The notes beneath the pieces were generated by a model, which worked only from the letters and a program-made list of their open reading frames with translations, searched no databases and was not told the DNA's origin. Below, one piece after another: positions 48,755-49,253 of a stretch of DNA of 64,000 bases; the stretch's first letter is position 1; each line of letters starts with the position of its first letter. Source of the stretch: an uncultured Bdellovibrionales bacterium (GTDB lineage: Bacteria > Patescibacteriota > Minisyncoccia > Moranbacterales > UBA1568); NCBI GenBank assembly GCA_964384235.1, contig CAYLJX010000002.1, positions 114,660 through 178,659 of the forward strand. The letters are read 5' to 3'. A program made the translations under genes and the position numbers.

Positions 48755-48903
48755 TATTCAGTATTTCGTATATCGTATGGCGTATTCCGGTACGTGATGC
48801 GAGATACCAGATACCGAATCTGGAAGGAATTTTAAAAAAGCACGCAGAAATGATTCAAGACAGTCCGCGTTGCGAACTGTCTTGTCGAGAGGGGTGGCCG
48901 TGG

Positions 48904-49125
48904 TCAATCCTGCTTCATGGAGGGCGATGGCAATAAGACCAGGGCGATGGCTGTGGCCAGCATCAGCGCGAAGAACGCCATGTTGAGCGGGACCGGATAC
49001 ATCGGCTGATGACTCACCCAGAGCATGGGCGCGTAGGTCCACAGGAAGCTGACACCGAAAAGAACCAGGAGAATGCAGGCGATCCAGAGGACTACCCGGA
49101 AGAGTTTGAACATGATGATCTCCAA
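48904..49125 (-). CDS. small two-TM membrane protein (73 aa) encoded antisense between atpG and atpD
   Basis: GGAG RBS 6 nt before the ATG. Two hydrophobic helices. Own hairpin terminator caagacag...ctgtcttg at about 48856-48884 followed by a U-run on the minus strand. Confidence 0.4.
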   Translation of the reverse strand: MEIIMFKLFRVVLWIACILLVLFGVSFLWTYAPMLWVSHQPMYPVPLNMAFFALMLATAIALVLLPSPSMKQD

Positions 49126-49253
49126 TTTTTCAGAAGGAACGATTATCGTTATATACCGCTACGTGTCTCCTGTCCCTGTAGTACTCCCAAAAGTGAAAAA
49201 CGTCAATACTTCATATCATAACTAATCAGGATTTCCTTTAATCAAGCAATACT

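Follow-up and report, generated by a model that had tools for sequence, protein, structure and literature searches.

Between atpG and atpD of an uncultured bacterium assigned to the Moranbacterales lies a short open reading frame (ORF), on the strand opposite to the atp genes, which is probably a real gene. Overall we read it as a small membrane-protein gene that is specific to its lineage and occupies a conserved antisense slot, with a functional role that is predicted only. The DNA analysed here, referred to as the window, is a stretch of 64,000 nt (positions 114,660 to 178,659 of contig CAYLJX010000002.1, assembly GCA_964384235.1) that carries a complete F-type atp cluster on its plus strand, as seen in the ORF list and with Pfam. 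The spacer between atpG and atpD (48755-49253) is 499 nt long versus at most 145 nt for the remaining atp junctions in the window (145, 92, -4, 46, 78 and 2 nt), as a preliminary description of this DNA had claimed (about 500 nt, far above the others). That description read the spacer as an antisense small membrane-protein gene, and this reading is supported with the corrections given below. On the plus strand the spacer runs from a GTAT hairpin through an A-run and a 13-bp hairpin to the minus-strand ORF, which ends at 48904, and closes with an AT-rich stretch of 128 nt (49126-49253, GC 0.36). Taken by itself the gene encodes an ordinary orphan hypothetical membrane protein, already among public gene calls; what is mildly unusual is the lineage-wide hotspot at the gamma/beta junction, where the regulatory flanks have been conserved more strongly than the essential genes next to them and the coding part has no cross-species similarity.

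The length of the ORF by itself is not significant against chance, and composition was therefore used to test for a gene, with a codon log-odds table derived from the window's long genes. With 0.289 bits per codon the ORF outscores the other five frames, which range from -0.05 to -1.14. Among 69-codon windows this score ranks at the 30th percentile of those read in the true frame and within the top 5% of those read in a wrong frame. GC at codon positions 1, 2 and 3 is 0.54/0.36/0.81 in the ORF, 0.60/0.39/0.69 over all genes and 0.58/0.33/0.80 in atpB, itself a membrane-protein gene, and the overall GC of the ORF, 0.57, exceeds that of its two flanks (0.46 and 0.36). Three-base periodicity is pronounced in the ORF (chi2 39.8, p = 5e-7) and is not found in the spacer flanks (p = 0.68 and 0.42). 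Two results significantly exceed chance, these coding statistics and the flank conservation among relatives described below.

The ORF had been described as one of 73 residues with two transmembrane (TM) segments. This frame is present (48904-49125, minus strand, from a TTG) and two helices are predicted for its product, but translation more likely starts at the in-frame ATG at 49113, which gives 69 residues. The 69-residue product is called in NCBI, ENA and Logan, and the 73-residue version is absent from the protein collection. The GGAG proposed as a ribosome-binding site is there (49123-49120) but carries little weight, since Shine-Dalgarno (SD) motifs are rare in this genome: of 51 genes in the window, 8 have an SD-like motif (GGAG, GAGG or AGGA at -16 to -7), a proportion close to chance, and all eight atp genes are without one. 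The start codon is probably chosen in this organism without reliance on SD pairing.

The predicted product has a mass of 7.9 kDa, an isoelectric point of 9.1 and a grand average of hydropathy of 1.25, with two hydrophobic peaks in the hydropathy profile. A single-sequence AlphaFold2 (AF2) model places helices at residues 2-32 and 41-60 (predicted local distance difference test score, 76). The second TM segment (LNMAFFALMLATAIALVLL) contains neither Asp nor Glu, and the first has one Gly. Nine independent assemblies of the same organism, at least 99.6% identical, all carry the ORF intact; two polymorphisms are found in it, F2S and A12T, both in L081 and both non-synonymous (L-numbers denote the comparison loci set beside the window). 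Variation at this level is too low for a selection test.

Database searches identify the protein as a species-specific orphan. A word-indexed search of 5.8 billion proteins returned one match, a strain variant that is 97% identical, and full HMMER against 1.84 billion representatives gave three further matches, all of them tandem-repeat artefacts. Pfam at E up to 1 yielded CopD only (E 0.073, 13.9 bits versus a cut-off of 32.1), NCBIfam gave nothing below E 0.12, and neither PHROGs nor PADLOC had a match for the ORF. The fold search with the AF2 model recovered generic two-helix hairpins only (best E 4.9), with no match to subunit c. No paralogue was found by tblastn in the window or any of the comparison loci, and pairwise and profile comparisons of the ORF with its positional analogues remained at shuffle z below 1 and hhalign probability below 1%.

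The ORF is framed by signals of its own. The hairpin with U-run that had been noted at about 48856-48884 is there, and its stem measures 13 bp, but the U-run is interrupted. The minus-strand sequence right after the hairpin is AATCATTTCTGCGTGCTTTTTT, and the tail AAUCAUUUCU has five U in eight followed by CUUUUUU, which qualifies the element as a predicted rho-independent terminator. It is unique in the window and had no match in 100 shuffles; over 20 kb, terminator-like sites in general number 21 versus 19.2 expected from shuffles. At the other side of the terminator, the GTAT-family repeat that had been reported in the spacer is confirmed at 48752-48822, as one of at least four copies of its family in the window. 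Here five GTAT units at 7-nt spacing and inverted ATAC units form a 70-nt imperfect hairpin (-28.2 kcal/mol, z -4.1). This hairpin has no U-tract, and the scan found no canonical plus-strand terminator after atpG. Rfam has no match in the spacer at gathering score; the sole match at E<1 is mir-2574 on the GTAT hairpin, with 19 bits versus a gathering score of 90.

Upstream of the ORF two candidate minus-strand promoters were found, P2 and, 30 nt downstream of it, P1. Perfect sigma-70 promoters exist in this genome, such as TTGACA-17-TATAAT at 36202-36174, and the standard consensus therefore applies; promoter-like sites over 20 kb number 14 versus 9.3 expected from shuffles, and scans of this kind, for promoters or terminators, say little by themselves. 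P2 has a conserved -35 element and a -10 box, TACTAC (49183-49178), that lacks the T at its sixth position. Its orthologues are TTGACT-17-TATCAT in L084 (10/12 with TG) and TTGACA-17-TATCAT in L086 (11/12 with TG), called independently. The hexamer ATTGAC is invariant in an alignment of four species (window, L084, L086 and L004), and the conserved -35 precedes the start codon of atpD by 48-53 nt in the window, L084 and L086. On the plus strand, 49126-49253 contains zero promoter matches of at least 9/12 in a scan that is uninformative in AT-rich DNA (41% hit rate in shuffles), and the scan of 47500-50500 gave no plus-strand promoter-like site. Over the final 35-40 nt ahead of atpD (ACTAATCAGGATTTCC...) the window corresponds to the entire atpG-atpD spacer, of 43-48 nt, of the cassette-free loci L002, L082, L083 and L085. 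This leader has the motif ACTAATCAG(G/A)ATTTCC, 18-33 nt upstream of atpD and without an SD, in the window and in L002, L082, L083, L085, L084 and L086; the motif could act in translation or belong to a promoter.

Comparison with relatives gives insight into how this arrangement arose. The closest atpG relatives (59-76% identity) come from metagenome-assembled genomes of Moranbacteria (Moraniibacteriota, candidate phyla radiation or CPR), and no atpG of 76-99% identity to that of the window is present in the genome or metagenome contig collections. A census of atp junctions covered 61 loci with atpG at least 43% identical, with junctions above 190 nt counted as expanded. The atpG-atpD junction is expanded in 31 of the 61, versus 30 of 248 (12%) for the other six atp junctions (Fisher p = 4e-10), and outside Moranbacteria it is mostly shorter than 100 nt. 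Gaps at this junction reach 2.3 kb in relatives, with several genes in either orientation, and the expanded gaps hold diverse small genes, mostly on the minus strand. Two-TM ORFs of 66-94 residues occupy the slot in L004, L084, L086, L010, L017, L090, L091 and L107; genes on the plus strand do so in L013, L023, L093, L102 and L103; and other cargo includes a Nudix-like ORF of 137 residues, an ORF of 179 residues like the ORF6N domain (both judged by eye) and soluble small proteins. The cassette is absent from the close relatives L002, L082, L083, L085, L005 and L006.

Four species (window, L086, L084 and L004) share one cassette order: a heptad hairpin, a minus-strand terminator, a two-TM minus-strand ORF of 66-81 residues, a minus-strand promoter with TTGAC, and the atpD leader. 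L084 and L004 follow the layout of the window with hairpins and terminators of their own. L086, whose atpG protein is 69% identical to that of the window, has the same GTAT hairpin directly after atpG and the same terminator, with the stem shared, CAAGACAGT...ACTGTCTTG with the tail AATCATTTCTG..CTTTTTT, after a two-TM minus-strand ORF of 81 residues. At the DNA level the window and L086 are 83% identical in the terminator (hairpin and tail), 81% in the GTAT hairpin, 77% in atpD and 68% in atpG, and the small ORFs are 46% identical against a shuffled baseline of 44%. The small proteins of the four cassette species are mutually unalignable, with a slight hint of relatedness between those of L004 and L084 (z 2.9); the ORFs of L004 and L086 are orphans too and are also called as genes by public pipelines. 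Slot ORFs of relatives (L086, L084, L004 and others) have codon periodicity at p = 2e-4 to 9e-3, values obtained on ORFs picked for hydrophobicity, which inflates T at the second codon position. Strong minus-strand promoters precede the antisense genes of L007 (12/12) and L016 (11/12).

In a rough neighbour-joining tree the window, L084 and L086 are basal to the short-gap clade, which suggests an ancestral cassette that was later lost. The preliminary description had an insert splitting atpBEFHAG from atpDC; the physical split is real, but the comparison points to an ancestral cassette of a Moranbacteria subclade and not to a private insertion. It had also looked to conservation of the ORF in related genomes, and to antisense transcription, as the test of the gene. 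Half of that test comes out negative, in that the ORF sequence is not conserved beyond the species, but the predicted transcription unit is conserved in relatives.

The slot and its repeats offer further observations. A recurrent soluble family of about 55-60 residues, with the motif ..KIF.G......V..WL..NP, occupies the slot in three distant Moranbacteria (L029 7218-7433, L101 5069-5251 and L130 5575-5802, all minus strand; blastp E 1.5e-5 and 2.6e-4). Proteins of 57-68 residues in L021 (7987-8193) and L130 (5061-5234), both on the minus strand, have an N-terminal hydrophobic segment, a His-rich stretch (HAHMNETFHAHPH and HEIGMQHDHH) and a C-terminal TM segment, and could bind metal. L007, the closest outgroup with an expanded gap, encodes a basic soluble protein of 87 residues (2694-2957, minus strand) with a GAGGA SD, and this antisense gene has a perfect 12/12 promoter, TTGACA-17-TATAAT, near 3050-3080. 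The 70-residue ORF of L004 and the 71-residue ORF of L091, a locus whose atpG is just 49% identical to that of the window, give a collinear alignment (score 54, shuffle z 5.3), which hints that some two-TM slot ORFs may form an old, fast-evolving family. L086 has a second antisense cassette (4982-5381) with a one-TM ORF of about 58 residues at 5060-5233 and a canonical terminator of its own, GCCCCTCATCGCAACCGCGCAGGGGC with seven T behind it; a direct repeat of 19 nt, ATGAGTTGTTT(A/G)GAAAAAA, stands on either side of this cassette and points to its duplication or insertion at the T-run of the terminator. In L084, the atpD leader and first 13 codons are duplicated at 3729-3920 (MGTTGKIIQVIGP, then out of frame to a stop), and about 110 nt of inserted sequence with many heptad-like repeats separates the duplicate from the real atpD start at 3921.

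GTAT heptad hairpins of the form (GTATNNN)n ... (NNNATAC)n, bulged at 7-nt intervals, occur in the window at 26781-26860, 42560-42640, 48752-48822 and 57125-57215 (z -3.2 to -5.0), with a partial copy at 37741-37780. All are intergenic; three lie just past a plus-strand stop codon and one between divergent genes. Among relatives, the hairpin after atpG has a GAAT tetramer in L003, L004 and L012, and GTAT in L086. Other 7-nt-periodic repeats in the window, at 5643-5673, 6359-6388, 6748-6776, 22609-22720, 23156-23184 and 24393-24422, have the cores GTTA, GAAT, TTTG, AATT, GTAT and AACAG. Heptad periodicity seems general in the intergenic DNA of this genome and its relatives.

We propose that the cassette is a self-contained opposite-strand transcription unit ancestral to the Moranbacteria subclade, an explanation that we consider, as a whole, fairly probable. 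Building on the observed anatomy, coding signal, orphan status, flank conservation and hotspot, we infer its transcription, translation, membrane insertion and topology, and the expression mode of atpDC, as follows. A sigma-70-type promoter with the conserved -35 TTGAC would drive a short monocistronic minus-strand mRNA that has a 5' untranslated region (5'UTR) of about 20-60 nt, is translated from the ATG at 49113 and ends at the conserved hairpin with T-run, 20 nt past the stop codon. The product would be a helical hairpin of 69 residues inserted in the membrane with both ends cytoplasmic (N-in/C-in), a topology suggested by the positive residues at either end (K3 and R6 in the N-terminal part, K67 close to the C-terminus); its outer loop would be SHQPMYPVPL, of about 10 residues. 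In relatives, unalignable two-TM ORFs of 66-81 residues occupy the same slot with the same flanks, and it would therefore be a small hydrophobic hairpin that is maintained, of no particular sequence. Since the species have only hairpin hydrophobicity and length in common, generic contacts with the membrane or with TM helices are the probable mode of action. It is probably no enzyme subunit or assembly factor, because close relatives do without the cassette and others carry unrelated cargo; we take it to be an accessory membrane protein, and its position to be a permissive slot at the gamma/beta junction, with no role in ATP synthesis.

The antisense unit and the GTAT hairpin would together act as a convergent stop module after atpBEFHAG, and expression of atpDC would then start in the AT-rich divergent region or depend on read-through. 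Read-through is suggested by the lack of a plus-strand U-tract terminator, by the leader shared with short-gap relatives and by the lack of a plus-strand promoter of at least 9/12 in the scan. A promoter of its own for atpDC is suggested for this lineage because cargo of up to 2.3 kb is tolerated, which would otherwise be polar.

Several observations weigh against a translated, self-contained unit. The ORF sequence is not conserved outside the species, and the fact that both of its polymorphisms are non-synonymous is compatible with weak constraint. The GGAG 6 nt before the ATG at 49113 is uninformative in so SD-poor a genome, the T-run of the terminator is broken up, the window has a degenerate -10 box in the orthologous promoter P2, and the alternative promoter P1 scores at chance level. 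Although the longest ORF is on the minus strand in 21 of 32 expanded gaps (21 versus 11), this is not significant (p = 0.11), and the expanded gaps are T-rich on the minus strand, which alone favours hydrophobic ORFs.

Were the ORF untranslated, function would reside in RNA or DNA elements (the heptad hairpin, a bidirectional stop module and the promoter region), and the GC-rich middle would be filler or antisense RNA. Flanks that are more conserved than atpG around an ORF at the random baseline are in keeping with this, as are the two non-synonymous polymorphisms and the chance rates of promoter, terminator and SD matches in the scans. However, filler should come to resemble the flanks in GC (36-46%) and would not be expected to have periodicity or a GC3 of 0.81, and four species have in common the strand, the length class and the two hydrophobic segments. 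The transcript of the ORF is not unusually structured as RNA (z +0.9) and has no Rfam match, and on these grounds a structured non-coding RNA was rejected. We regard an untranslated ORF as distinctly unlikely. We are just as sceptical of a slot kept by selection on its promoter, terminator and heptad hairpin, in which the ORF would be replaced or re-invented in each species and the unit would serve either as a noncontiguous-operon switch that sets beta/epsilon output or as a sequence-unspecific hairpin that modulates the F-ATPase. If true, it would mean a new regulatory layer on the CPR ATP synthase, and rapid turnover or de novo birth of small proteins under fixed signals.

Regulation of the noncontiguous-operon or excludon type would have atpDC expressed by read-through, so that the atp mRNA would include the complete complement of the small gene, with sense and antisense transcription repressing each other through collision and RNase III cleavage of the duplex, and the small protein as an antagonist, possibly toxin-like, made when atp transcription drops. 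The GTAT hairpin without a U-tract and the absence of a canonical plus-strand terminator after atpG would suit this arrangement, as would the lack of a plus-strand promoter of at least 9/12 in the scan of 49126-49253 and an atpD leader like that of relatives whose 43-48-nt spacers leave no room for a promoter. The multi-gene gaps of up to 2.3 kb in relatives argue instead for a promoter of atpDC itself. The 5'UTR of the small gene has no special structure (z 0.02), by which a structured leader of toxin type was rejected, and a two-TM protein of 69 residues is atypical for type I toxins. While the architecture fits the published definition of noncontiguous operons, the same source states that such operons cannot be predicted computationally without transcriptome data (PMC11034616). 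On balance we consider this form of regulation unlikely.

That the protein is an accessory or assembly factor of the ATP synthase, functionally like AtpI, AtpZ or a c-ring chaperone, appears very unlikely. The gene does lie inside the atp cluster, the ORF list has no visible atpI upstream of atpB, two-TM minus-strand ORFs recur at the junction, and a small two-TM hairpin resembles subunit c and also AtpZ, itself a two-TM protein of similar size. Against this, neither Pfam at E up to 1 (PF03899, PF09527 and PF00137, which we take to be AtpI, AtpZ and subunit c) nor NCBIfam has a match to any of the three, the protein has no membrane-embedded carboxylate and no Gly-rich motif, and the fold search gave generic hairpins at E 4.9 or worse. 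The cassette is missing in close relatives and replaced by unrelated cargo in others, and a total loss of similarity is unexpected where atpG keeps 68-76%. Identity with subunit c was rejected for want of a Pfam match, a carboxylate in the second TM segment, a Gly-rich first TM segment and a fold match; identity with AtpI or AtpZ was rejected for want of a profile match, with the wrong strand and position. Least probable, to the point of being scarcely credible, is a remnant of a mobile element, such as a miniature inverted-repeat transposable element or insertion-sequence fragment, between atpG and atpD. Its ends would be an 8-bp perfect inverted repeat (ATAGTATT at 48751-48758 and AATACTAT at 49248-49255), and the 19-nt direct repeat around the second cassette of L086 would be in line with it. 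Yet by our estimate about three such 8-mer inverted pairs are expected by chance per 600 nt, there is no transposase, neither the window nor the 169 loci hold a second copy of the ORF or terminator, phage records have no match, and the codon usage of the ORF is native. A mobile-element remnant was rejected on account of the chance-level repeat, the single copy and the lack of a phage match.

Table 1. Positions of the features of the atpG-atpD spacer and of the atp genes in the window.
Feature	Position	Strand	Basis or remark
GTAT heptad-repeat hairpin, (GTATNNN)5 ... (NNNATAC)n	48752-48822	+	begins within the atpG stop codon
T-rich terminator tail, AATCATTTCTGCGTGCTTTTTTAAAATTCC read on the minus strand	48826-48855	-	sequence, scan
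Predicted terminator hairpin, 13-bp stem (7 G-C pairs), 3-nt loop	48856-48884	-	20 nt past the ORF stop
Small ORF, 69 residues plus stop, MFKLFRVVLWIACILLVLFGVSFLWTYAPMLWVSHQPMYPVPLNMAFFALMLATAIALVLLPSPSMKQD	48904-49113	-	coding statistics, public gene calls, AF2, hydropathy
SD-like GGAG (49123-49120) and 6-nt spacer	49114-49125	-	alternatively the first four codons, if TTG 49125 is the start
Candidate promoter P1, GAGACA-16-GATAAT, 9/12	49142-49169	-	chance-level score for an AT-rich spacer
Candidate promoter P2, TTGACG-17-TACTAC	49178-49206	-	position matches the L084 and L086 promoters
Conserved atpD leader motif, ACTAATCAGGATTTCC	49221-49236	+	also fills the short spacers of relatives
atpB	44108-44860	+	
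atpE, genuine subunit c gene	45006-45233	+	
atpF	45326-45814	+	
atpH	45811-46209	+	
atpA	46256-47755	+	
atpG, F1 gamma subunit	47834-48754	+	PF00231, E 6.2e-85; last gene of the upstream half of the cluster
atpD, F1 beta subunit	49254-50639	+	PF00006, E 1.1e-72, plus PF02874 and PF22919
atpC	50642-51094	+	

Elsewhere in the cluster, promoter-like sites lie about 100 nt before atpB (TTGACG-17-TATACT, 43978-44006) and before atpE (TGGACA-17-TACAAT, 44933-44961), and a 14-bp palindromic hairpin (45262-45293) is found in the atpE-atpF junction; as a set these elements may permit the c subunit to be controlled separately. The only Rfam matches of the window at gathering score are a tmRNA at 22131-22528 on the minus strand (106.7 bits) and a tRNA at 58934-59016 on the plus strand.

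For annotation, the 69-residue call should be kept as a hypothetical membrane protein and not as an ATP synthase subunit. If our proposal holds, the most conserved bacterial bioenergetic operon would have a permissive break between gamma and beta across a whole CPR lineage, at the place where cyanobacteria and plastids split theirs. The break would house a small membrane-protein gene under signals of its own, with regulatory flanks that persist longer than the coding sequence, and would thus offer a compact natural case for the turnover of small orphan membrane proteins and for opposite-strand tuning of subunit stoichiometry. In the library that was searched there was no paper on the organisation of atp genes in Moranbacteria or on an antisense small gene inside an atp operon.

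Among known systems, the architecture that the arrangement appears to resemble most is that of noncontiguous operons and excludons, in which an opposite-strand gene lies between co-oriented related genes; examples include small-peptide genes and energy-metabolism operons (PMC11034616). As in menE-menC-MW1733-ytkD-MW1731 of Staphylococcus aureus and the excludons of Listeria, the window has an opposite-strand gene (48904-49113, between atpG and atpD) inside a functional unit. That class is defined by co-transcription of the flanking genes across the antisense gene, and to belong to it the window would have to yield a transcript that spans atpG to atpD; the antisense unit has a predicted terminator of its own and need not overlap atpG, and in many relatives the slot is empty or otherwise filled. 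The gamma/beta break itself has a counterpart in cyanobacteria and chloroplasts (Synechococcus, Synechocystis and plastids), where the genes for a, c, b', b, delta, alpha and gamma form atp1 and those for beta and epsilon form atp2. The window breaks at the same point, but the cyanobacterial halves are separate loci with mapped promoters and those of the window are neighbours, separated by 499 nt that hold an opposite-strand gene.

The product invites comparison with other small membrane proteins. Like AtpI (uncI) and AtpZ, it is small, very hydrophobic and encoded inside an atp cluster; the genes for AtpI and AtpZ, however, are co-oriented and stand at the 5' end of the operon, whereas the ORF of the window is on the opposite strand between atpG and atpD and its product matches no family. 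It shares with the type I toxins (Hok, TisB, Ldr and Fst) the character of a small, hydrophobic, orphan-like peptide from an intergenic region, with a strong terminator and RNA elements that are better conserved than the peptide. Such toxins usually have fewer than 60 residues, one TM segment, a dedicated antisense small RNA and a structured 5'UTR that masks the SD, unlike the 69 residues, two TM segments and unstructured 5'UTR of the window, where the scan gave no plus-strand promoter in the unit; a read-through atp transcript could conceivably serve as antisense RNA to the small gene. Finally, the protein resembles the orphan small membrane proteins of CPR bacteria (Patescibacteria), which are short, hydrophobic, without family and annotated as predicted proteins only. 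What sets the window apart from the usual orphan genes is that its slot keeps a promoter and a terminator across species while the coding part between them changes.

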